This document shows, one piece after another, positions 2,899 through 63,134 of a stretch of DNA of 64,000 nucleotides. Positions within the stretch are counted from its first letter, which is position 1. The number at the start of each line of letters is the position of its first letter. The stretch lies in assembly GCA_951406725.2 (NCBI GenBank), contig OX597818.1, forward strand, positions 4,340,001-4,404,000, read 5' to 3'. Both the position numbers and the translations under genes were made by a program. Source of the DNA: Octopus vulgaris. Lineage: Eukaryota. Below the pieces are notes generated by a model, which saw nothing but the letters and a program-made list of their open reading frames with translations, was not told the DNA's origin and searched no databases.

Positions 2899-2960
<62 letters not shown>

Positions 2961-2965
<5 letters not shown>

Positions 2966-3457
2966 GATGTGTGTATTTTTCCCTTGTTAACAGTTAACAC
3001 GGAAAAATTAGATAGATAGTTAGTAGGGTAGCAAAAAATCACACAAGTAAAAAGGTTGTAATTCCTTGTTTTTAAAGGTAGAGACTTTGGGTTTACGTGA
3101 AATTTTTGTATAATATATAAATTAATAAATGGAGTTTAACGCACGTGTAATTCAAATTCTTTTACTTCCAACACATGTTTCGAAGATATCACTGATATTA
3201 TTCCAAAGGAATAAAATGGTGTAAAACAATGTAATCTTATCTTCAGGGAAGTGAAGAAATGAAACTTGTCAATAAGACATTTTAACAGAAAATGATGGAT
3301 ATGAATAGTGATTAACTGAACGCTATTAATATTGTTTCAAAAAACTTTATAGGATATAATGTTGACACTTTCAATGATAAGGCCGAATTTTATAACTCTG
3401 CCTTATTTAAAGCAGAGTTAAAGAATTTGAATTACACCTGCGTTAAACTCCATTTAT
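2961..3457 (-). mobile_element. non-coding foldback mini-PLE with hammerhead
   Basis: 38-bp inverted arms 3125-3162 / 3420-3457, unique tail 2961-3124, (TA)n flanks. Confidence 0.75.
3161..3255 (-). ncRNA. hammerhead ribozyme
   Basis: Minus: TTCACTTCC-CTGAAGA-tAAGAT...ATCTTc-GAAAC-ATGT-GTT-GGAAGTAAA; 8/9-bp stem I; first stem II pair mismatched. Confidence 0.75.
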
Positions 3458-3507
3458 CTATTTATATATACATACACATATATACAAACGTACATATATA
3501 TACATAC

Positions 3508-4354: not shown

Positions 4355-4675
<321 letters not shown>

Positions 4676-5386
4676 CGGGGCAACGAAGAATTATTTGAAA
4701 CAATGACTTAATTATCACAGATATACTTTTAAAAATAGAAATAGGAGTAATTCTACAGGGTTAAGTACATATATATGGGAACTTAAGGATAAAAAAATAA
4801 ATTATAATTTACAATGGAAGATACTAATATCAGCACCTTCGAATAATAATAAAAATAGAAAATGTTCATTATGCATTAATGAAACTTTCTTTCTAATTAG
4901 GGCTAATTTACTGATTATTAACAATTTTAAGGAACGTAATATCTCATGTCTTCATAAAATTGGGTATACTTTCTCCAGATATAAATAGTACTTATTATAA
5001 TCTACTCTTTGAACTCAATACAACTAGTTATAGTGAGCATATATAATGAAATATATATATATAGTAGTAGTTAAATTGTAATGAGTTGTGGATATATGGC
5101 TCTTTGTGTATTTGTGTATATGTGTGTAATGTGTGTATATGTCTGAGTATGTGTTTGTATATATAGGTGTATATATGTGTATATATATGTGCTTGTATCT
5201 ATATGTGCTTGTGTGTGTTTGTATGTCTATCCATATGTATATGCATACTAGTATACATTTGCATTTGTTGTTAAGTGGGAACTTATGTACTATGCATGTG
5301 TGCATGTACATGTCCACATGCATATACTTGGTTCTGGATTCATATATATATATGTGTGCATGTATGTGTATATATATGTAATATAT

Positions 5387-5428
<42 letters not shown>

Positions 5429-5709
5429 GTATGTATAAGTTTTCAATTATCGTTTTATGTTATTAATTATGTATATTAGGTCTTATAGGTAGGTCATTGT
5501 GTATGTATGTGTATATATATGTAGTCTAGATTATACTTATGTAGATATATGTGTTTTTATATATTTAAATTAGGATATATTAGTATCTTCCATTGTAAAT
5601 TATAATTTATTTTTTTATCCCATATATACCTGTAATTGTATTTTTATATGTGTGTGGATATTTTGCATATGTATGTGTATGTATGTATGTATACATATGT
5701 ATATATGTA

Positions 5710-6497: not shown

Positions 6498-6501
<4 letters not shown>

Positions 6502-6785
6502 CATTATTGGTGAATTGAAGAAATGGAGCTGAACGCAGATTGAACAGAAATCGTTTTATTTCATTCAGTGAATGAAATAAAACGATTTCTGTTCAATCTG
6601 CGTTCAGCTCCATTTCTTCAATTCACCAATAATGTTTTAATTTCAATTATCCGCACCAACGCACGGTTGCAACACCATATGGTTGTACCTCCAACCGTGC
6701 TGTTTACTGCTGTGATTTTTGCTACTAAGGTATCGGTTAAACTTTTGATTAATCTACTACAAGATTAGTCATCTTTCTATTTCAC

Positions 6786-6790
<5 letters not shown>
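6498..6790 (+). mobile_element. foldback mini-PLE, family A
   Basis: Perfect 70-bp arms 6498-6567 / 6569-6638 around one base, then a tail nearly identical to 33215-33369. Confidence 0.85.
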
Positions 6791-9773: not shown

Positions 9774-9980
9774 CATATATACTACAAAATTAGAGAATGG
9801 AGAAACATACTTAAATCAGTAAAACATCAACTATCCGATGATACTCAATCCATACTTTAATACACCATTACATATGAGTAAAGGCAATATATAAAATGAA
9901 ATGAGATATACAGTAATAGTAAAAGTAAAAAGATAAAGAGATATAAGTAAAAAATTTCAAATATAATATGCAAATAAATC

Positions 9981-10096
9981 AAAACTGACAGCTGTTTCGG
10001 CAGTGAGGACAGTCATACCTCATTTAACCTATAAGCCATAAAGGCAGGTATAAATGAGGCATTAACAAGGATGCCCCACGGCCTCTTCAGAGAATT
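9981..10096 (-). ncRNA. hammerhead ribozyme, copy in the inverted pLTR
   Basis: Reverse complement of 15955-16071. Confidence 0.8.
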
Positions 10097-10434
10097 AAAT
10101 TAAATTTGTTATAATAGTGAAAAATATTATATAATCATATACATATAAATATAAAAATATAAAAATGTAAAATATAAAAACTTATACATCATAATGCTAC
10201 ACTTATATAATATAATACACATTTGTACAAAAAGGAAGGTAAACAGAACAAAATAAAACAAAATATATAACAGTGTATATATTAATATTAATAAGTACCG
10301 ATATTATACATATTTGGCTAATAGTTTTTTTTATAAAAAAAAAAGGGCTAACACATATGGAGATGAAAAATAATAATTAAATCCGTGGTACAGTTCATAA
10401 AATTCTAAAGCTATAAAAGTTAATAAAAATTACT

Positions 10435-10492
<58 letters not shown>

Positions 10493-11473
10493 TAATAAAA
10501 ATAGATACAGTTAAGTTAGCACCAAGTCCATCCTTTCAAGATCGAAATAACTATGAGTTAAGAAATGCTGACCACTAGGTAAAGAAAATTTAGATTAATT
10601 CGATTGGCTATTGGTTTGAAATTTAAATCACAAAAGAAAATTATACGGTTGGTTAGTCAGGGAACGCCAATATTCACACACGCATCTACAGATCAATCGC
10701 ACATACACACATAGTTATATGTATATACATACACTTATACACATACATAATCACAAGCAACAACTAGCACTTAGATAAACAAAAAGGGAAGCAACTATGC
10801 TAACATTTAGTCCTTCAAAATTATAACTGAGCCTCAATAACAAAAAAAGAACCATCCATGCATTCTATAAAATATTTAATTTAGATATAAATATATTTTT
10901 AAATATCAGTATGTTACTAATTCAGATAATTATTTCATGGGTAACTTAAAATTTATAACACCGGTTTGTTGCAGAGTAAACATACGGTTGTTAGGTTTAT
11001 CGTAAGTTTGTTATGATTTTAAGTACGCTAAATTATAAAATATAAAATATAAAATATATATTAATTTAAATATTATAAATAAGTCACTTATTAACTTAAT
11101 AAATATAGTGCCATAATATACCAGTTTAGGCATTAAAGAATAGAAGGGGAAGTATTAATGTAAACGCTTATGAGAACATCACAGAAATTTTAAATAAATT
11201 TTATATTATAAAGACTTAAGATGAAAAGAGATAAAATAAATAAAAAGGAATAAATACGAAGGAATAAATACGGTTATACACATAATTATAAGTACAAACT
11301 AGTATATATGTATTCATATATTATTAAAATTAAATAAAAATAAATGATAGATATGTATGTATAAAACTACACCAGTATAAGTAAATAAGTAAAAAATAAA
11401 TAGGTAACAAATTAGATGACTTGATATGTATGTAAACATCTACACTTAAATAGGCAAATAAATAAATAAATAC

Positions 11474-13847
11474 AAGGAAATAACCAAGAAATACAAAGTA
11501 GTACCTTCTAGTACACTTAGAAAACTGAACCTGGAGATCAGAGAAATCATATTTGACTACTACCTAGAAGAAAAAACGGAACCCTACACCCCATCCAGAC
11601 CGAGAATTACACTAAAGGATCATAAAGAGAATTTTCTTGGAAACACACAGGTCAGATTAATTTGCCCCACTAAATCTGACTTAGGCAGACTAAGTAAACT
11701 CATTCTAGACAAATATCTACCCACCATCCGCAATAAAATCAAACTAAACCTTTGGAAGAATACTCAGGGTGCTTTGGATTGGTTTTCTACCATTAAGGTC
11801 TGTGACAGTAACAACTTTAGCTATAATAGAAATAAATTTATACAATTCGATATACAGAATTATTACACTTCAATTAACCCTATTATATTAAATAAGTCCT
11901 TAATTTTTGCTAGAAAACACACTAAATTAAGTATGGGGGAGATTAAGGTTATACTAACAGCCAGGAAAACTTTAATAGAGTTTGATAATAAACTTTGGGC
12001 TAGAAAGGACACACCCAACTTGTTCGATATCACAATGGGATCGCCGGACTCAGCGGAGGTGACTGATCTAGTTGGGATGTATCTATTAGATAACTTTAGT
12101 AGGGAATTCCCTGAATTAAAAGGTGGATTATACAGGGATGACGCCTTATTTTGTGTTAGGAATACATCAAATAGGAGATTAGATCTTCTGAAAAAAAGAA
12201 TAAATAAATTTTTTAAAAGCTTCGGCCTATCCATTATCATTGAAAGTGAAAATTATTCTGCTAATTATTTAGATGTTAATTGTAACATTACTAATGGTTT
12301 ACATGAACCCTATATTAAACCTAATTCTAACCTAATATACATTAACCGTTCTAGTAATCACCCCCTCAAATTAAAAATGCACTAGTGCGTAGCATTAGTC
12401 AGAGAATTTCTAGTTTATCCTCAAACGAGGAAATTTTTAACAAACACTGTGATAGATACAATGCAGCATTACTTAAGGCAGGATATAAAAGTAAGATTTG
12501 GTTTATACCTAAGGGGAACCCCCTAATGGAGGTAGAACTATCAGGAACAACACAAATAGATTTAGGATAATCAACAATATACATAAGAATAGTAAAAATA
12601 GAATATATGATAACACCTATAATAAATGTAGAAGTGACGTTAACCTTGGAAAGGTGAACGGTAGCTCAAATAGATCTAAACATACGGGTAATAGTAGTAA
12701 TATTAATAATAATATACGAATTAAAACTTATGGTAGACATGATAATGGTAAAGTTTACTTGCGCAATAACCATGGTAATATTGATATAGATAGATATAAC
12801 AATGACAGTGGTAAGAATAGTAATCCTATGAGTTGGTCTACGAATAGGATTTTTACAAATAACATTAATTCTATAGGCAATCCTAATTCTGATAAGGATA
12901 CTCTTTGGTTGATTATCCCGTATGCAATGCAGATTAAAACAAACATAGTGAGAGCTTTGCATAATGTTATTTTTAGGCATTTTGGTAAGGATAGGAATAA
13001 ATTTAGTCCTTTAATTAACAACGGTACTGTTAGAGTGGGATATAGCATTACTCATAATCTAGCCACCATTATCTCCTCTTTTAATAACAAGAAACTGGAT
13101 CACTTCTATAAGGATAGAAAATTGAATTTAGACCAGGAAAACTTGCCCCTCTTCATTAATAATAGGAATAGAAATTTTCTTGGAACAAATGGGAACAACC
13201 TCCTTACTAATAATGAGTGCACCATACCTGTCAGAGATAATATAAATGTAATAGATCATACTACTACTACCAATACTAGTACTAGTGATAGGAATATAGT
13301 CGATAATGTGAAATTAACTCATTCGTTGATTTTGGGTTTGGATGATGATAACAATTGTAACACTTATAATGTGAATAGTAGTATAGGGGTGGTGTCCAAT
13401 CTTAGATTTCCTCATTCTGTTAATCTTTGTAATTGCAGAAATAAAAATAAATGTGTATTTGGTAATCAATGCCTCAGGAAGGAGGTAGTTTACCAATGCA
13501 CTGTAGATACACAATTGAGTAGTAGGGTGTATATCGGGGCAACTATGAATAGCATAAAACAAAGATGGAATTATCACAGATATACTTTTAGGAATAAAAA
13601 TAGAATGTACTCTACAGGGCTAAGTGCATACATTTGGGAACTTAAAAGTAAGAACTTAGATTTTAGATTAAACTGGAAAATACTAACTTCAGCACCTGTG
13701 TATAATGGAAAAAATAAAAAATGCTCTCTATGTATTAATGAAATTTTCTTCATTATTAAAGCGGGTCGGCAAATTATTAACAACATTAATGAGAAAAACT
13801 TCTTTTGTATTCATAGGCTACCGTTCACCTTTTCTAGATTCAAATAG
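11474..13847 (+). pseudogene. PLE reverse transcriptase + GIY-YIG endonuclease, frameshifted
   Basis: ITLKDHKENF..RLICPTKS, FDIQNYYTSI, FDITMGSPDSAEV, LYRDD, YINRSSNHP; then CNCRNKNKC, VVY..VYIGAT..KQRWNYH, CSLC..CIH. Frameshifts/stops near 12370-12650. Confidence 0.93.
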
Positions 13848-15558
13848 AACTTAGCACTTCCACTATTATTAATTTTTTAATTCCCTTCTTTAACTAAATA
13901 TACCTGTGGTCTTCTATAATTCTAAAGTATACAATTTATAAATTTCATAATTTTATAATTTTTATAGCTACATTTGTATAATAATTAATGGATGTGTCTA
14001 GTATTATTGGTTTCTTGGTTTTTGTATGTGGGTTTTTGTTTGCTTTTTTAAGAGAAATGCAATATGACATAAAATAACATATTCATTTTGGTATTTGCCT
14101 TGTAATGTGTGATTTTTGAAGTTTTCCAATATTGCATAGTATATTGCATAGTATATATGTATATCTTGGTTGGATACCTAGCTCTGGATAATGTAATGAT
14201 ATTGTATAATATGTAATATATGAGAGCCTTTTGTGAGTTTGGTGGGTTTAGGTTGAGATTATAGGTTTTTTGTATGTGTTTATTTGGAAGGTTTTTATTA
14301 TATATTTGGTCTTTTTGTACTCACCTTAATTTGTATCTTATGCTATTCACTGATAAACCTTTTTCATTTTTTTCATTTTCTCATTTACATGCATTTTGCT
14401 TTATAATTATTACCAGCCTCATATATTTAGTTTATATCTATAGTCCTCTGGATCTGTACTTTAAACTATCCTTCCATACATATTTACTTTCAACAATATA
14501 AAATATATATATTCACTTTATTTATTTTTATTTATTTCCCATTTTATTGTAATATTATCAATCTTTGCATCTAGTCTTCTATTTATTTATTTATTTGCCT
14601 ATTTAAGTGTAGATGTTTACATACATATCAAGTCATCTAATTTGTTACCTATTTATTTTTTACTTATTTACTTATACTGGTGTAGTTTTATACATACATA
14701 TCTGTCATTTATTTTTATTTAATTTTAATAATATATGAATACATATATACTAGTTTGTACTTATAATTATGTGTATAACCGTATTTATTCCTTCGTATTT
14801 ATTCCTTTTTATTTATTTTATCTCTTTTCATCTTAAGTCTTTATAATATAAAATTTATTTAAAATTTCTGTGATGTTCTCATAAGCGTTTACATTAATAC
14901 TTCCCCTTCTATTCTTTAATGCCTAAACTGGTATATTATGGCACTATATTTATTAAGTTAATAAGTGACTTATTTATAATATTTAAATTAATATATATTT
15001 TATATTTTATATTTTATAATTTAGCGTACTTAAAATCATAACAAACTTACGATAAACCTAACAACCGTATGTTTACTCTGCAACAAACCGGTGTTATAAA
15101 TTTTAAGTTACCCATGAAATAATTATCTGAATTAGTAACATACTGATATTTAAAAATATATTTATATCTAAATTAAATATTTTATAGAATGCATGGATGG
15201 TTCTTTTTTTGTTATTGAGGCTCAGTTATAATTTTGAAGGACTAAATGTTAGCATAGTTGCTTCCTTTTTGTTTATCTAAGTGCTAGTTGTTGCTTGTGA
15301 TTATGTATGTGTATAAGTGTATGTATATACATATAACTATGTGTGTATGTGCGATTGATCTGTAGATGCGTGTGTGAATATTGGCGTTCCCTGACTAACC
15401 AACCGTATAATTTTCTTTTGTGATTTAAATTTCAAACCAATAGCCAATCGAATTAATCTAAATTTTCTTTACCTAGTGGTCAGCATTTCTTAACTCATAG
15501 TTATTTCGATCTTGAAAGGATGGACTTGGTGCTAACTTAACTGTATCTATTTTTATTA

Positions 15559-15616
<58 letters not shown>

Positions 15617-15954
15617 AGTAATTTTTATTAACTTTTATAGCTTTAGAATTTTATGAACTGTACCACGGATTTAATTATTATTTTTCATCTCCATATGTGT
15701 TAGCCCTTTTTTTTTTTATAAAAAAAACTATTAGCCAAATATGTATAATATCGGTACTTATTAATATTAATATATACACTGTTATATATTTTGTTTTATT
15801 TTGTTCTGTTTACCTTCCTTTTTGTACAAATGTGTATTATATTATATAAGTGTAGCATTATGATGTATAAGTTTTTATATTTTACATTTTTATATTTTTA
15901 TATTTATATGTATATGATTATATAATATTTTTCACTATTATAACAAATTTAATT

Positions 15955-16071
15955 TAATTCTCTGAAGAGGCCGTGGGGCATCCTTGTTAATGCCTCATTT
16001 ATACCTGCCTTTATGGCTTATAGGTTAAATGAGGTATGACTGTCCTCACTGCCGAAACAGCTGTCAGTTTT
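15955..16071 (+). ncRNA. type I hammerhead ribozyme in pLTR, long stem II
   Basis: CTGAAGA 15962-15968; stem II GGC.GTGGGG/CCTCAC.GCC enclosing GCCTCATTTA/TAAATGAGGT; GAAAC-AGCT-GTC 16054-16065. Stem I weak. Confidence 0.8.
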
Positions 16072-16438
16072 GATTTATTTGCATATTATATTTGAAATTT
16101 TTTACTTATATCTCTTTATCTTTTTACTTTTACTATTACTGTATATCTCATTTCATTTTATATATTGCCTTTACTCATATGTAATGGTGTATTAAAGTAT
16201 GGATTGAGTATCATCGGATAGTTGATGTTTTACTGATTTAAGTATGTTTCTCCATTCTCTAATTTTGTAGTATTAATTTACGGTAATATTATTACCTTTA
16301 CCCATTTAATACAATAGATGAACTGATTGCTTGACAATTTTTAACATCTATGTATTAATTTTGTTGGGTACCTATCTAGCAGTATATTGGATATATATTA
16401 TCCCATGGTGGGTTGAATTTTCAACCCCTATCTCATTT

Positions 16439-16484
<46 letters not shown>

Positions 16485-16486
16485 TA

Positions 16487-18436
16487 ACTTCTTCGCCTTC
16501 AATGACAACTTCTACCGACAAAAATCGGGGACTGCGATGGGTACACGAATGGCCCCCTCCTTTGCCAACCTAGTCATAGGATACCTAGAGATCAGTCTGT
16601 ATCGTAAGGTTCTAGAAAGATATGGCAGCCCTTTCTCCATCTACATAGAAAACAACTGGAAGAGATATCTAGATGACTGTTTCATTCTTTGGCATAAAAA
16701 TATAGAAAAACTCATAGAATTCCAGGAAATTTTAAATGGACTGGACGCAAACATCCAATTCACGATGGAATATAGCCAGCAACAACTCCCCTTCCTCGAT
16801 ATCCTCATTAAGAAAGCTAATAATATAATAGAAACAGACATATACTATAAGCCTACAGACTCTAAGCAATATCTTCCATTCAATTCTTGCCACCCCAGAC
16901 ACACCAGGATGAATATCCCCTTCAATCTAGCAAAAAGGATATGCACTATAGTCTCTAAGGCAAACACCAGAGACACACGACTACAAGAACTAAAAGATAC
17001 CCTTATCACCAGGAACTATCCACCTTCACTTATTGACAAGTGCATTCAACGTGCCCTTCAACTTAAAATCAAGGAACTGAGACATCCCAAATCAAAGAAA
17101 AACTTACAACCAAAAGCCTTACCATACATCTCCACACACAACCCTCTCAATAACGAAGCCTTCGGCAACATCCTCCACAACATACCCCTCCTAAAAAAAG
17201 ACCACAGAATGAACACAATCCTCCAAACACACACGGTCATAAAAAAGCAAAAGACAGCCTAGATCCATGAAAAGTCTCCTAACACAAGCCCGAATTCACT
17301 CTTCAACACAGAAGCCGACAGTAAAAAAATGTGGAAGACCCAATTGCGGGATATGCGACTATCTAATTGAGGGATCAGAGTTCTCCTTCAAACAGGGACA
17401 ACGGTTAACAGTGAAAAGCAACTTCACATGTGCTTCGGAGAACCTAATATACTCACTAACCTGCTCCGGGTGTCAAGAGCAGTACATAGGCCAAACAAAA
17501 AATGGTTTGCGTAAACGAATGGCCCTGCACAGATCCCAGATAAAAATTCCCCAAAACAGAAAAATAGCTTTTAGCCAACACATAGATACTTGCGCCAACA
17601 AAAAAACACCAAACTTCAGGATTTTCCCCCTCTACCAATTTAGGGACGATACAACCTCGAGACAACGAATAAGTAAAGAAAATCTCTTTATTACAAAATA
17701 CAGGCCACTTCTTAACGGGTCTACGACAAACAATTAATATACCTCAACTTTAGAATAAAAGAAATATATACACACACAAATATTACATTCCATAGAATCC
17801 ATTACTAATCAGCCCCATCACAGCTATGCTTTCACCCATTCATATTCTCCCTTCTCTGTTTTTTTCTTCTTCTTCCTCTTCTTCTTCATCATCATCATTA
17901 TCATCATCATCGTCGTCATCATCATCACCACCATCATCATCATCATCATCTCCTTCTTCTTCTTCTTCATCATCATCATCATCAACATCGTCATCTTCTT
18001 CTTCTTCTACTTCTCCACCTTCTACCCCTTAACCTTGTCACTAATGCCTTTCAGTATAACGCCTACGCAAATTCCATAAACAATTCCTGAATTGAACTGC
18101 GACTGCTGTCCGCCACTGACCATTCAAAATACGACCATCAAGGCATTCCCAGATTTCCCCACCCCCTCTCCACATCAGCCTTCTGCTTCTCCTACCCTAC
18201 CAAGAACTCACAATGACCTCGAACACACAAGTGCAAACAAGGGAGTCAGAGAAAGGCAGAATGCCACTTATATCTGAACACTACTATAGAAATATTCCTT
18301 TAAAAAAACTTTTCTTCTAATTTTTCTAAATTTAATTATTTAATCGTTACAGTTGAAAAGGTCTCAAAATGACCGAAACCGGTACTGAAAGATTCACTAT
18401 AAAATTATCTTAGCATTTTCTATTTTTGACTTGTTT

Positions 18437-18442
<6 letters not shown>
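16487..18442 (+). mobile_element. Neptune-like Penelope element, 5'-truncated (RT C-half, Zn linker, GIY-YIG, 3'UTR)
   Basis: GTAMGTRMAPSFANL, RYLDD, LPFLD, YYKPTD..YL..SCHP, CGRPNCGIC, LIY..CSGC..YIGQT; frameshift near 17255, stop 17737; (TCA/TCT)n in UTR; (TA)n flanks. Confidence 0.9.
18342..18394 (+). ncRNA. minimal hammerhead ribozyme with U3-A8 core variant
   Basis: CAG-TTGAAAA-GGTC-tcaaaat-GACC-GAAAC-CG-GTA-CTG: all three stems pair, stem III is the palindrome ACCGGT, and it sits at the PLE 3' end. Confidence 0.75.
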
Positions 18443-18486
<44 letters not shown>

Positions 18487-18491
<5 letters not shown>

Positions 18492-18799
18492 CGGGGCGAC
18501 GAAGAATTATTTGAAACAATGACTTAATTATCACAGATATACTTTTAAAAATAGAAATAGGAGTAATTCTACAGGGTTAAGTACATATATATGGGAACTT
18601 AAGGATAAAAAAATAAATTATAATTTACAATGGAAGATACTAATATCAGCACCTTCGAATAATAATAAAAATAGAAAATGTTCACTATGCATTAATGAAA
18701 CTTTCTTTCTAATTAGGGCTAATTTACTGATTATTAACAATTTTAAGGAACGCAATATCTCATGTCTTCATAAAATTGGGTATACTTTCTCCAGATATA
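18487..18799 (+). repeat. 313-bp direct duplicate of the PLE EN fragment at 4671-4983
   Basis: Same 5' breakpoint (tatatcgggg), same internal TGA, about three substitutions by eye. Confidence 0.9.
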
Positions 18800-26235: not shown

Positions 26236-26358
26236 TATTCACTCTGATGATGTTCCATGTACTAGATCGAATGTGCTATAAAGATGATGAATATTATTTT
26301 TGGAATTTCTTTCGTAAGCACCAACTAACACTGGAAGTGGAAACAGCTGTAAGAAATA
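26236..26358 (+). ncRNA. hammerhead ribozyme with long stem II, in a probable PLE 3' remnant (~25680-26615)
   Basis: CT-CTGATGA-TGTTCCA...TGGAAGTG-GAAAC-AGCT-GTA-AG; remnant ends in (TA)n ~260 nt downstream. Confidence 0.7.
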
Positions 26359-26609
26359 TTATGTCATGTTTTGTATTAAAAAATAATCAACCGATGTGGT
26401 TCAATTTGTTTGTTGATCAAAAGTTTTCTCCATTTTCTGATTATTTAAATTTGATTTCTGATAAACTTTTGTTTATTCTGTTGTTACCTGTACCCTATGA
26501 GCATAATGTGCCTGCATGCCCATGCCCAGGCATAGCACAGGTAATTGATATTGACGTAAATCCGGAAACTATCATCGCTTAGTCAGTTATTACAACCACT
26601 AACTCTGCT

Positions 26610-26642
<33 letters not shown>

Positions 26643-26652
<10 letters not shown>

Positions 26653-27048
26653 TATTAGAGACAAAACCACTATTTTGCAAAACAAACAAGGAAAGACTTA
26701 ATCAATACATAAAATTTTAATAAATAGTCAAAAAAAACGCCACTACAATCGTTTCTTGTCTTGATCGACAATCTTCAGGTGGACTTCAATAAGTCAGTTT
26801 CAAAATTTGAAACTGACTTATTGAAGTCCACCTGAAGATTGTCGATCAAGACAAGAAACGATTGTAGTGGCGTTTTTTTTGACTATTTATTAAAATTTTA
26901 TGTATTGATTAAGTCTTTCCTTGTTTGTTTTGCAAAATAGTGGTTTTGTCTCTAATAATATTTTATAATATTTTACTATAAAATTGGATTTAATCTTAAA
27001 TCTGATTTTTTCCCTGTAAATTTGGATTTATTCCCTAATATTTATTAT
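26643..27048 (+). mobile_element. foldback mini-PLE, family B
   Basis: 162-bp arms 26643-26804 / 26806-26967, perfect by eye, plus ~80-bp tail; (TA)n flanks. Confidence 0.88.
26826..26872 (+). ncRNA. minimal hammerhead ribozyme (mirror copy on - at 26738-26784)
   Basis: CCAC-CTGAAGA-TTGTC-gatcaa-GACAA-GAAAC-GATT-GTA-GTGG. Confidence 0.85.
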
Positions 27049-27099
27049 TATATATATATATATATATATATATAATGATATATATACATAAACAAATGT

Positions 27100-27325
27100 G
27101 AAGGTGCGTGGCTCAGTGGTTAGAGCATCGAGCTTACAATTGTGAGGTTTTGAGTTCTGTTCCCAGATCAGGTTGCATGTTGTTTTCTTGAGCAAGACAC
27201 TTTATTTCACGTTACTCCAGTTCACTTAGCTGTAGAAATGAGTTGCGACGTCACTTGGGCCAAGTTGTATCAGCCTTTGCTTTTCCCTTGGATAACATCG
27301 GTGGTGTGGAGAAGGGTGACTGCTG
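27100..27325 (+). mobile_element. tRNA-derived SINE, older
   Basis: gtggctcagtggttagagc...cttgagcaagacacttta core. Confidence 0.75.
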
Positions 27326-31074: not shown

Positions 31075-33896
<2,822 letters not shown>

Positions 33897-33903
33897 ATAT
33901 ATG

Positions 33904-34259: not shown

Positions 34260-34262
<3 letters not shown>

Positions 34263-34455
34263 AGGCGCAATGGCCTAGTGGTTAGGGCAGCGGACTTGCG
34301 GTCGGAGGATCGCGGTTTCGATTCCCAGACCGGGCGTTGTGTGTGTTTATTGAGCGAAAAAACACCTAAAAGCTCCACGAGGCTCCGGCAGGAGGTGGTG
34401 ATCCCTGCTGTACTCTTTCCCCACTATAAAAGGGGGTGCTCCAGCATGGCCGCAT
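34260..34455 (+). mobile_element. tRNA-derived SINE
   Basis: A box tggcctagtgg, B box gtttcgattcc, non-tRNA body; (TA)n flank. Confidence 0.85.
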
Positions 34456-42411: not shown

Positions 42412-42511
42412 NNNNNNNNNNNNNNNNNNNNNNNNNNNNNNNNNNNNNNNNNNNNNNNNNNNNNNNNNNNNNNNNNNNNNNNNNNNNNNNNNNNNNNNNN
42501 NNNNNNNNNNN
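42412..42511. other. assembly gap (100 N)
   Basis: Seen directly. Confidence 1.
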
Positions 42512-52734: not shown

Positions 52735-53148
52735 TGTTAATTATATTTATATTATTTGTTATTTATGTATTGGTTTATGTCTACTACTGTTTGAGTTGCC
52801 TAATAGTGGTTTTATCTCTAATTCATATTTTTTATATACTTATACTGTGAAATTTGATTTAATCCTAAATTTAATTTTTCCCTGTAAGTTTGGAGCCATA
52901 CTCCCTAACATTTTAAGAAGTGAAAAAAAGTTTCTTTTTTACAAATATAAACTACGTGTTTGAAATAATATACTTAAGCCCAATTACTTTGATTTCAATT
53001 CAACTGTTTAGATGGCAGCTGAATAATTTATTTCCCATTTAATGGTGGGTATCCTTCTAGTTTATATAACTACATAGAATAAATTTTATGTTAAATGGCT
53101 ATGTGGAAACTGAAACTTTATATTTTATTTTTTTCTTCTTGTGAATAG

Positions 53149-53256
<108 letters not shown>

Positions 53257-53376: not shown

Positions 53377-56655
<3,279 letters not shown>

Positions 56656-60320: not shown

Positions 60321-60457
60321 GTGCTTGTGTTTGTAGTTTGATAGGCTAGTCTATTGGCCTCTTACTCTGGTGTTTCCACAGCATTACAGACAAGTCTAAA
60401 CTGGCAAAGAAACATGCCTCATCTACCTGACAGCAGAAGTAGCATAGAAAAAAGTTT

Positions 60458-62500
60458 GGATCTTTTCCTTTTGAACGGTAGTTTGTAACATAATTTCTAG
60501 GTAACTAAAAAATTTTAAACTTCGTATACTGGTAGAATGTGTTTATAAAACATCATTTTCTCTTGGCTTTATTGAGAAAATTCTATAGGTTGTAACATAT
60601 TTCGTCTAAAATTTCTTGCATTTCGGCAATTTTAACCAATCAATTACCTCCATTGACATAAATAACATTCTGTGCATAATGAATATGTCCCTCGTTTAAC
60701 CCTTTCGTTACTATATTTCTGACCAAAATACACCCCTCATGAGTTTCAATTAAATTCTAAAATAATCATGAATTTAGGCTTGTTTCATTAAATAACTGTA
60801 ACTTTTTTACTTATCAACATACAAATGTGATATTTTGAACATAATTAAAGAAAGGGTTCTTAACCAATTCTATTGCATAACTTTTGTCTCAAAGTGACTT
60901 TAATTACAGGTAAATCCAGGTAAATTGAGCAAAAGGTAAAAATATTAAAATTTTAAATTGAGCAAAAGGTAAAAAATTAAAATTTTGTTTAAACATCACT
61001 ATAGAAAATGAATCATCAGCTAATATTCAAATGGGTATGCAACAAAATTTTGAAAAAGAAGAATTGTGCACATCACTATATCATTAGTTGAATTTAATGC
61101 ACAACAGGTGTACCATAAAGGTGGAATAAACTGAAATATTGGAATCCACCGCAAGTTTGACCGAACTAAAGAAATCGGTCAAAAAATAATATACGGCCCT
61201 GGTTATGGTATGGAAGTGATAAATTCCAGACCACATCGTACCCTAAGCCATGCTGACTAACATTATTTTCCCTGTATAAAAACTAAATCCACGCAGTACC
61301 CAGTATTTGCTTCATAAATTTCCCAAACTTTGATCCCCCATTTTGGGTTTGTTTACAATCTGCGTAAGTTTGTTTCCGACGTGATCGCTTCAAACTAGCA
61401 TACTGAAAAAAATAAAAGTCTAATGGTTTCGCTTCCTAAGAAAGACTATAGATAAACTATCTCCTCAGAAAAATTGCTAATAAAAACATTTTAAAAGTTT
61501 TTTTACTTCACTCCGATGTAAAATCGTCTTCGCCGCTTTGTTTCTTCGGAAGGCGCTGCTTTCATTTTCGGATAAAATAATATTCATTATTTTGTACACC
61601 ACATGCTTTGGTACCTATTTCATTTTTTTTCTCCATATCTCCCTATTTTCCGTTGACAAAGCTTTAAATTCGGAATCAATGCTTGATAACATGAAACTCC
61701 TATCCATTTTCAAAGTTGAAGAAAAATCGATGCCGAAAAACATGTGGAAAAAAATCTCCCAAAATTCACTGAGTTGAGATATCACTTCAAGCAATGTCGG
61801 ATACTATAACTTAACTATTTACAATGTGAAATCACGTGCTTTAACGAATGTACCAACGAGATTTGGGTTCAAATTTACATTTAAATAACAATAGGTTCTC
61901 ATGGCCGGGTACGGCCGGGTTAGTAACGAAAGGGTTAAGAAACAGATTGGGTTTATTTACATTTGTGAAGAAAAAAGATACCCTTCCCCCACCCCTAACC
62001 CTAACTAACCCTAACTCTAATCCTAAATCTAAAATAGATTGAAATGCAATAGATCGATACTAGGGTTATAATTATGGGTGACAATTTCATACGACACCGC
62101 TATAAAAAACTTAGCTGTGTCGTATGAAATTGTCACCCATAATTATAACCCTAGTATCGATCTATTGCATTTCAATCTATTTTAGAGTTAGGGTGGGTTA
62201 GGGGTGGGGGAAGGGTATCTTTTTTTCTTCACAAATGTAAATAAACCCAATCTGTTTCTTAAAGGAGGGACATATTCATTATGCACAGAATTTTATTTAC
62301 GTCAATGGAGGTAATTGATTGGTTAAAATTGCTGAAATGCAAGAAATTTTAGACGAAATATGTTACAACCTATAGAATTTTCTCAGTAAAGCCAAGAGAA
62401 AATGATGTTTTATAAACACATTCTACCAGTATACGAAGTTTAAAATTTTTTAGTTACCTAGAAATTATGTTACAAACTGCCGTTCAAAAGGAAAAGATCC
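60458..62500. mobile_element. foldback MITE (~400-bp arms, 8-bp TSD, GG termini; Merlin-like by inference) interrupted by the piggyBac element
   Basis: TSD aaaagttt 60450-60457 / 62501-62508; arms rejoin once 60700-61938 is removed; apex near 62103-62111; ccctaa repeats. Confidence 0.85.
60700..61934. mobile_element. non-autonomous piggyBac element
   Basis: TTAA TSDs 60696-60699 / 61935-61938; perfect 14-bp TIR ccctttcgttacta. Confidence 0.93.
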
Positions 62501-62942
62501 AAAAGTTTATAGATAGTGTGAAAGGAATAATAATAACAATAATACATATAGGAGCCCAGGAAATGAGGCAGGAGGAAATGATTCACACATTTTATGTAAT
62601 TTCAAATTTTTCTGTTGTTGCAGTTTCATTCCATGAAACTTTTTTTTGTCTCTTAAACACACTGTGTAATCTCTGTTTTCATTTCATTAATTTCATTCCT
62701 TGTTATGGTTCACCTTAGGATTTAGACATGTTTCTCATTCAGAAATAATAGCTAAAAATATTGAAGAGGATCTTGTTGATGTGAAATTCTTCATTTCATT
62801 CTTATATCTAATTTTAGGTTTATCTAAATTTAGTAATCAATGTTTTACCATTTTTGGTATCTAGGATCATTGGATTTAATCGAACACTGATCCTTTAATC
62901 ACTTTCTTGATGAGTGTCTGGAACTTTTAAATTTATATTTAG

Positions 62943-63134
<192 letters not shown>

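Follow-up and report, generated by a model that had tools for sequence, protein, structure and literature searches.

Family B of the octopus genome is best explained as a set of short insertions, each derived from the 3′ end (pseudo-LTR) of a Penelope-like retroelement (PLE), the end that bears the hammerhead. They were likely made in trans by PLE RT/GIY-YIG at (TA)n arrays, and two separately primed cDNAs likely gave rise to the mirror arm during insertion; we place the probability of this reading at about 0.85. Established are the anatomy, the occurrence of one donor's alleles on both arms, centres that differ from copy to copy, and an inner end that is constant and adjoins (TA)n in many copies. 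The window analysed is a 64,000-nt stretch of Octopus vulgaris DNA, and it holds two palindromic copies (B1 and B2) and an older piece (B3), laid out as follows.

26615–26646: left (TA)16 target array of B1; its final TATA overlaps the arm end as microhomology
26643–26804, minus strand: B1 inverted arm, 162 bp long and identical throughout to the right arm; it would be the cDNA primed from the inner start site
26740–26782, minus strand: the minimal type I hammerhead as mirrored on this strand, from the motif scan
26805: B1 centre, 1 nt, where the two arms join
26806–26967, plus strand: B1 sense arm
26815–26828, plus strand: small predicted hairpin GACUU/AAGUC immediately 5′ of stem I, with family insertions in or at its loop (behind 26818–26822)
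26828–26870, plus strand: hammerhead motif of the minimal type I form, with its core at 26832 and cleavage predicted after 26866
26968–27048, plus strand: tail of 81 bp without a counterpart on the other side, bounded by two inferred RT start sites and predicted to form a 13-bp hairpin
27049–27074: right (TA)n array of B1
33498–33897, plus strand: B2, with left arm 33498–33653, loop CTGAC 33654–33658, right arm from 33659, core at 33678, tail to 33897 and (TA)n on both sides
about 52735–52913, plus strand: B3, an old diverged piece of 78% identity that starts 3′ of the hammerhead, with (TA)n before it

The sequence-only reading had described 162-bp perfect arms, a hammerhead on both strands and a tail of about 80 bp, and measurement agreed: the two B1 arms do not differ at a single position, only one A lies between them, and the tail is 81 bp long. 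The tail of B2 is of similar size, and (TA)n flanks each of these copies on both sides. It had also expected no TSD beyond (TA)n, and only (TA)n flanks were found, a TA duplication being indistinguishable within such an array. B1 shares with EN+ PLE insertions (PMC3846280, PMC8557442, PMC11167929) an AT-rich or microsatellite target with the TSD absent or hidden, a head-to-head inverted, 5′-truncated copy adjoining the 5′ end through a palindromic junction, a one-sided tail lying between what would be two RT start sites, and a hammerhead motif near the 3′ end, its core 216 nt from that end. Unlike those insertions, family B consists of one short unit plus its mirror, has no linked coding frame and reaches a very high copy number; its 81-bp tail also exceeds the 30–40 bp described for PLE insertions, together with the inverted 5′-truncated copy at the 5′ end and the (TA)n preference, by Craig et al. 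(2021, PMC8557442), which counts against our explanation. The stretches at both inferred start sites (26945–26967 and 27030–27050) have a common CYCTAAT about 10–15 nt before the junction, and TCTCTAATT stands at the equivalent place ahead of the inner end of a neighbouring PLE, element A. The mirror arm also places the hexamer TCAGTT (26794–26799), which we take to be an initiator-like motif, just upstream of the B1 sense arm.

The hammerhead of B1 is of type I, with a 4-bp stem I (CCAC/GUGG), the core CUGAAGA, a 5-bp stem II, GAAA and the stem III hexamer CGAUUG, and it was recognised by a descriptor for the minimal type I form (core CUGANGA, GAAA and NUH with helices I, II and III). In its strict form the descriptor matched three times in the window, always in family B, whereas 100 dinucleotide-shuffled versions of the window gave a mean of 0 matches; when the 243-nt sense unit was shuffled, 1 of 20000 shuffles matched. 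Stem III is self-complementary, as for a dimer form, and the hexamers CGAUUG and CAAUUG would each duplex fully (−2.4 and −3.0 kcal/mol, respectively). The G10.1-C11.1 pair at the base of stem II, called "highly conserved" in PMC4209133, is absent, both B1 and B2 having U-A; many Hydra-clade entries in the supplement table of PMC8557442 likewise deviate at this pair, and the core and stem II of family B resemble entries of the same table in spelling (ctgaagat-tgNc...gNca). No compensatory change was seen between the B1 and B2 hammerheads. Rfam gave 0 matches in the window at gathering score and 23 around B1 at E<=10, none of them a hammerhead and the only models being generic miRNA hairpins. 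The earlier warning that such an element could be mis-annotated as a MITE holds, and confusion with a miRNA is a further risk. Since the ribozyme region folds no more stably than its shuffles (z +0.4), the call rests on the core motif and not on folding energy, and the B1 hammerhead is a predicted self-cleaving motif. The AAGUC 5′ of stem I can pair either with the upstream GACUU or with GACU 3′ of the cleavage site, a possible folding switch. Two minimal hammerheads on opposite strands, whose short palindromic helix III should require dimerisation, are also known from Schistosoma mansoni, where they lie 100–700 bp apart and were ascribed to truncated PLEs (Cervera and De la Pena 2014, PMC4209133); in family B, unlike these, the cores are 54 bp apart and the base of stem II is U-A and not G-C.

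A search of public sequencing runs found the stretch, whole or in part, in 20 of the 24 runs listed, and half or more of its words in 12 (10 studies, 7 organism labels); none of the listed runs that contain it was recorded as RNA. Contigs from four of the 24 (X1, X2, X7 and X17; organisms A and C) were aligned onto the 241-nt sense unit, to which 14438, 1230, 2567 and 84 contigs, respectively, could be placed. These counts make family B very repetitive in organisms A and C, the summed depth being no measure of copy number. Loose ends behind 26967 were (TA)n in 39 X1 and 19 X7 contigs, which marks a constant outer end for the mirror arm; the inner arm end joined to (TA)n recurs under two organism labels. 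Some family contigs extend upstream of the B1 centre. Among the joints listed for the four runs there was no strand-switch, circular or tail-to-head joint, and contigs do not prove absence. Summed contig depth at the hammerhead core was about one third of its peak in X1 and X7 and below one tenth in X2 and X17, and upstream of 26823 it reached at most about 3% of the peak; we did not use this profile as evidence, because contig overlap, the private deletion of B1, poly-T tracts, end effects and PCR hairpin dropout could each produce it. Exact family B patterns occurred at 0 loci in viral contigs, metagenome contigs and prokaryote genomes. None of the short family B motifs searched for occurs in the Craig et al. 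supplement (PMC8557442) with its curated Naiad/Hydra consensus sequences, a point against our explanation; a match to CCTGTAAGTT in a Naiad and two other entries of that supplement was judged to be due to chance. No published description of family B was found in a literature search that lay outside most subscription journals and outside Repbase/Dfam.

Comparison of the copies bears on how the palindrome arose. A sister copy with similar ends and arms and a different apex had been reported from the sequence, and B2 is indeed 90% identical to B1 around a different centre; its own arms carry 7 internal differences, and the hammerhead in its left arm is damaged. B3 has neither a hammerhead nor a clear mirror arm. 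Alleles private to one copy are mirrored within it. In B1 the G after 26822, present in about 90% of X1 depth, is missing from both arms, and the T at 26873, where 89–100% of family contig depth has G, also stands on both; in B2 a longer upstream loop, a G in loop II and an A in loop III likewise occur on both arms. The B1-private alleles therefore point to one template, or donor, per insertion. The claim of a single template thus stands on the missing G and the T at 26873, while the example first given for it, the GATT loop, falls away: G>A at 26860 reached 1% in none of the four runs, hence GATT is not private to B1 and seems to be the family majority.

The centres differ in the two palindromic copies (2 of 2). 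That of B2 reads AA-CTGAC-TT, and AACTGACTT is ordinary sense sequence, intact in B1; its cDNA ends would lie at −14 and −21 from the core (B1 numbering), joined on 2 bp. For B1, provided that the family sequence at this place is AATT, ends at −26 and −28 would have met over 1 bp. This AATT was read from a loose-end consensus of 12 contigs that runs about 12 nt past the centre, and with a median loose length of 12 its far letters rest on few contigs. As each centre can be rebuilt from sense sequence and 1–2 bp of microhomology, the mirror arm was likely made at insertion.

A relaxed descriptor scan brought out further hammerheads in the window with self-complementary stem III hexamers. The neighbouring elements that concern us are these.

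9781–16272 (to 16440 with tail): element A, a Hydra-type PLE plus a tail of about 165 bp, with a frameshifted RT/GIY-YIG frame
16480–18441: 5′-truncated Neptune-type PLE with a CX2-5CxxC linker and a GIY-YIG with CCHH, between (TA)n arrays and directly after element A
6498–6790: C1, both arms of which begin at the base after the predicted cleavage site; in (TA)n
32923–33367: C2, whose antisense arm holds the ribozyme and about 90 nt upstream, and whose sense piece starts 7 nt past the cleavage site; in (TA)n
about 2960–3460, minus strand: E, the reverse of the C2 arrangement, with about 170 nt upstream; in (TA)n

Element A has the motifs CxCX5C, CxxC and CxH without CCHH, which by eye agree with how Craig et al. 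(PMC8557442) describe and align the Hydra clade; its DKT region is truncated, its linker is Asn-rich, and 2.1 kb of non-coding sequence separates the stop from the hammerhead. That hammerhead, at 15962, is related to the one in family B and carries a long stem II insertion. The inverted arm of element A is 1.7 kb long at 99.6% identity; of the two 5′ ends of the element, one is about 1.4 kb and the other about 4.5 kb upstream of the ribozyme core. Its best named relatives are Argonauta hians proteins (48% and 42%; 2 of 39 matches name a species), which makes an octopod host probable.

In C2 and E one arm starts 4–8 nt past the predicted cleavage site and the other runs through the ribozyme, while the C copies have private alleles common to both arms. 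Because one arm holds sequence that the other is without, a single snap-back is ruled out for C2 and E, and the unequal arms of the neighbours make two primed cDNAs the simplest common mechanism. It does count against our explanation that B1 and B2 by themselves also fit the snap-back of a single cDNA, so that their two-cDNA step is borrowed from these neighbours. In 3 of the 6 inverted-arm insertions (A, B1, B2, C1, C2 and E) an arm stops no more than about 8 nt downstream of where cleavage is predicted, a post-hoc count from which an element at 26244 was left out. The ends of C1, C2 and E may be a footprint left in vivo by the copying of cleaved RNA, and by the use of two RNA templates in each insertion. 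The tails of the neighbours, at about 150–165 bp, are longer still than the 81-bp tail of B1.

Several other features were noted in the window. The element left out of the count (26244–26614) has a hammerhead-like core, a CAGCTG stem III and a stem I of only 2 bp, lies about 350 bp ahead of the (TA)n flanking B1, and is perhaps another PLE end in the same (TA)n array. The Neptune-type PLE has a degenerate hammerhead-like core near 18350. Two fragments, at 4669–5620 and 18487–18799, are about 73% similar to the endonuclease region of element A and each directly follows a (TA)n array; the former has a short inverted repeat (4787–4830 / 5577–5620). Heads of tRNA-like SINEs, recognised by eye, follow the (TA)n downstream of B1 (27100–27300) and of B2 (34260–34425), and ARAGORN found 0 tRNAs. 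A 328-bp palindrome at 61935–62262 has TTAA flanks, CCCTAA-like repeats in its arms and no hammerhead, abuts one of a pair of 245-bp inverted repeats (60455–60699 / 62259–62503), and may be a true DNA-type element. Three RUVBL2 (TIP49) exons lie on the plus strand at 53149–53256, 53400–53496 and 62943–63071, and no earlier exon of the gene was found in the window. B1 and B2, and with them much of the window, may therefore lie in one long intron, though a gap of 100 N (42412–42511) separates the two copies from these exons.

Family B may alternatively be, much as the sequence-only reading had it, a free-standing, non-autonomous, PLE-dependent and SINE-like family with a defined RNA of about 250 nt that starts about 30 nt upstream of the hammerhead. 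The PLE mechanism would be the same, small trimming at the join giving the different centres, and this possibility, to which we attach roughly one chance in three, would refine our explanation and not exclude it. It would account for the clustering of the inferred cDNA ends of B1 and B2 within about 14 nt, for sense arms that each start 26 nt before their own core, and for the lack of any coding remnant next to the window copies (3 of 3) of so repetitive a family; pLTRs, moreover, have promoter-like motifs and suffice in cis (PMC3846280). The missing remnants say little, however, since the stretch between stop and hammerhead in element A is itself non-coding for 2.1 kb. Only two palindromic copies are available and their ends do not fall on the same nucleotide, the loose-end consensus continues past the B1 centre (with the reservation given above on its far letters), and the shorter, hammerhead-less B3 starts 3′ of the ribozyme. 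Neighbours of the same plan end anywhere between the cleavage site and 4.5 kb upstream of the core, and a palindromic copy would bury its own ribozyme and signals in dsRNA. An origin of the palindrome in an assembly or library artefact, or in gene conversion or replication slippage after insertion, is barely credible. Long-read hairpin artefacts do occur and the B1 arms are 100% identical, but the B2 arms differ at 7 sites and still share private alleles, the junction of the inner end with (TA)n recurs in contigs of two organism labels, and the neighbours have unequal arms.

Two more familiar classes of element have also to be weighed. As a palindromic MITE of a TA-targeting DDE transposon, family B would have the right size, TA on both sides and termini that share a loose AT-rich likeness over about 15 nt, its hammerhead-like motif being there by chance. 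We consider this very improbable: the long inverted partner of the left end sits 81 bp inside the right end, so that terminal inverted repeats are not found at both ends as the definition of a MITE has it; the centres differ between copies, where a uniform inherited centre would be expected, yet private alleles are mirrored; a strict hammerhead arises by chance in only 1 of 20000 shuffles; and the same plan is joined to an RT/GIY-YIG frame in element A. A non-LTR retrozyme, replicating through a circular RNA excised by hammerheads, is highly improbable as well. Family B resembles the metazoan non-LTR retrozymes (Cervera and De la Pena 2020, PMC7229834; Li et al. 2026, bioRxiv 10.64898/2026.07.22.740005) in being short and non-coding, with a type I hammerhead and a presumed dependence on PLEs; it also has low GC and a unit of about 240 nt, inside the published range of 150–450 bp (PMC7229834), and retrozymes have been proposed to derive from pLTRs (bioRxiv 10.64898/2026.07.22.740005). 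Retrozymes are, however, defined in these two sources by same-strand tandem hammerheads, which yield circRNA, whereas family B is a single head-to-head unit plus tail. No head-to-tail repeat with at least two same-strand hammerheads was found in the window, the ends of the copies do not match the cleavage site, and no tail-to-head joint was among the contig joints listed, which are no proof of absence. Because its two hammerheads lie on opposite strands, excision of a unit-length RNA is impossible, and the label "retrozyme-like" of the sequence-only reading is not supported in this defined sense.

The insertion of PLE ends, which we prefer, has published precedents. Palindromes at the inverted junction and solo pLTRs were described by Arkhipova et al. 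(2013, PMC3846280) and read there as self-priming, hammerheads occur in Hydra and canonical PLEs (PMC8557442), and a purified PLE protein cuts and extends both strands from two start sites whose spacing equals the tail, ribozyme cleavage not being needed in vitro (Frangieh et al. 2024, PMC11167929); for general background see PMC8969392, PMC2997562 and PMC6962438. For family B, the endonuclease would cut both strands of a (TA)n array, and one nicked strand would then prime cDNA synthesis from 27048, the outer start site, and the other from 26967, the inner one; two separate start sites would leave the 81-bp tail on one side only. Both cDNAs would pass an uncleaved hammerhead and stop 14–28 nt upstream of the core (B1 numbering), after which their 3′ ends may anneal on 1–2 bp and be filled in, giving the head-to-head palindrome. 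In read-through transcripts the palindrome would form a 160-bp hairpin, with the ribozyme buried inside it and A-to-I editing likely, and most copies are therefore probably dead ends.

That family B is mobilised by PLE RT/GIY-YIG had been suggested from the sequence, and the suggestion gains from the PLE insertion anatomy and from the attachment of the same plan to an RT/GIY-YIG frame in element A. No RT/EN frame contiguous with family B was found in the window, and comparison with the ends of the two coding PLEs there (element A and the Neptune-type element at 16480–18441) gave no real similarity; both points speak against our explanation and against a simple link to these two. As the mobiliser, a Hydra-clade PLE is more likely than a Neptune-type one. 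Family B shares the (TA)n target and a similar core and stem II spelling with Hydra-clade elements such as Hydra-1_Obim, Penelope-5_HM and Penelope-13_HM (PMC8557442), the last of which also has an attached inverted copy and hammerheads on both strands, and a Hydra-clade PLE, element A, is itself present in the window. In contrast to these elements, stem III of family B is shorter and family B is known without any protein. As to the source RNA, we lean slightly towards an autonomous element.

The run X17, guessed to be RNA, comes from a different individual than the DNA runs. Of 26 listed differences, 11 reached 1% in X17 only, and all 11 were A>G or T>C, as against 3 of the 15 that reached 1% in the DNA runs (Fisher p 5e-5, the sites not being independent). 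All 11 X17-only changes lie in the arm and 0 in the tail, the part that X17 covers most deeply (p about 0.008, treating the sites as independent); none has a 5′ G, and 5 of the 11 rest on a single contig. The strongest, at 26937, reached 75% over 17 contigs and stayed below 1% in DNA, and that at 26939, in UAG, reached 51% over 9 contigs. The predicted 160-bp hairpin of B1 has a folding energy of −272 kcal/mol, and the X17 pattern is as expected for ADAR A-to-I editing of such a hairpin, which we consider likely on a hint from one run; an expressed divergent locus would be the alternative source of these changes. In octopus, both the rate of hyper-editing and the density of near-perfect dsRNA loci are exceptionally high (PMC5625713; further editing context in PMC9068888), and it is omitted from the repeat analysis of PMC5625713. 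The palindromic Harbinger repeat of Xenopus (Porath et al. 2017, PMC5625713) is, like family B, a self-complementary repeat that forms dsRNA without a partner. It is heavily edited, whereas editing of family B is a hint from one run and the B palindrome is likely a by-product of retrotransposition. We found no description of PLE palindromes as octopod editing substrates in the literature searched, most subscription journals lying outside it.

A bolder proposal is also conceivable, though we regard it as unlikely in its entirety: family B would be a free-standing non-coding parasite of Hydra-type PLEs, in which two RNAs of about 250 nt, paired through the self-complementary stem III, are reverse-transcribed from both cut strands of (TA)n, so that each insertion is palindromic by design. 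The 160-bp intronic hairpins would then be a main substrate of the extreme A-to-I hyper-editing in octopods, and the neighbours ending at cleavage sites a footprint of PLE hammerhead cutting in vivo.

The structure of family B is the known form of a PLE insertion in miniature, and one readily misfiled as a MITE or a miRNA hairpin. PMC8557442 and PMC11167929 leave open how PLE inverted repeats form and whether the hammerhead acts in vivo, and short junctions by the thousand, each built separately, would offer natural material for both questions. For the octopus itself, palindromes made by PLEs are a concrete candidate source of its dsRNA and hyper-editing loci.
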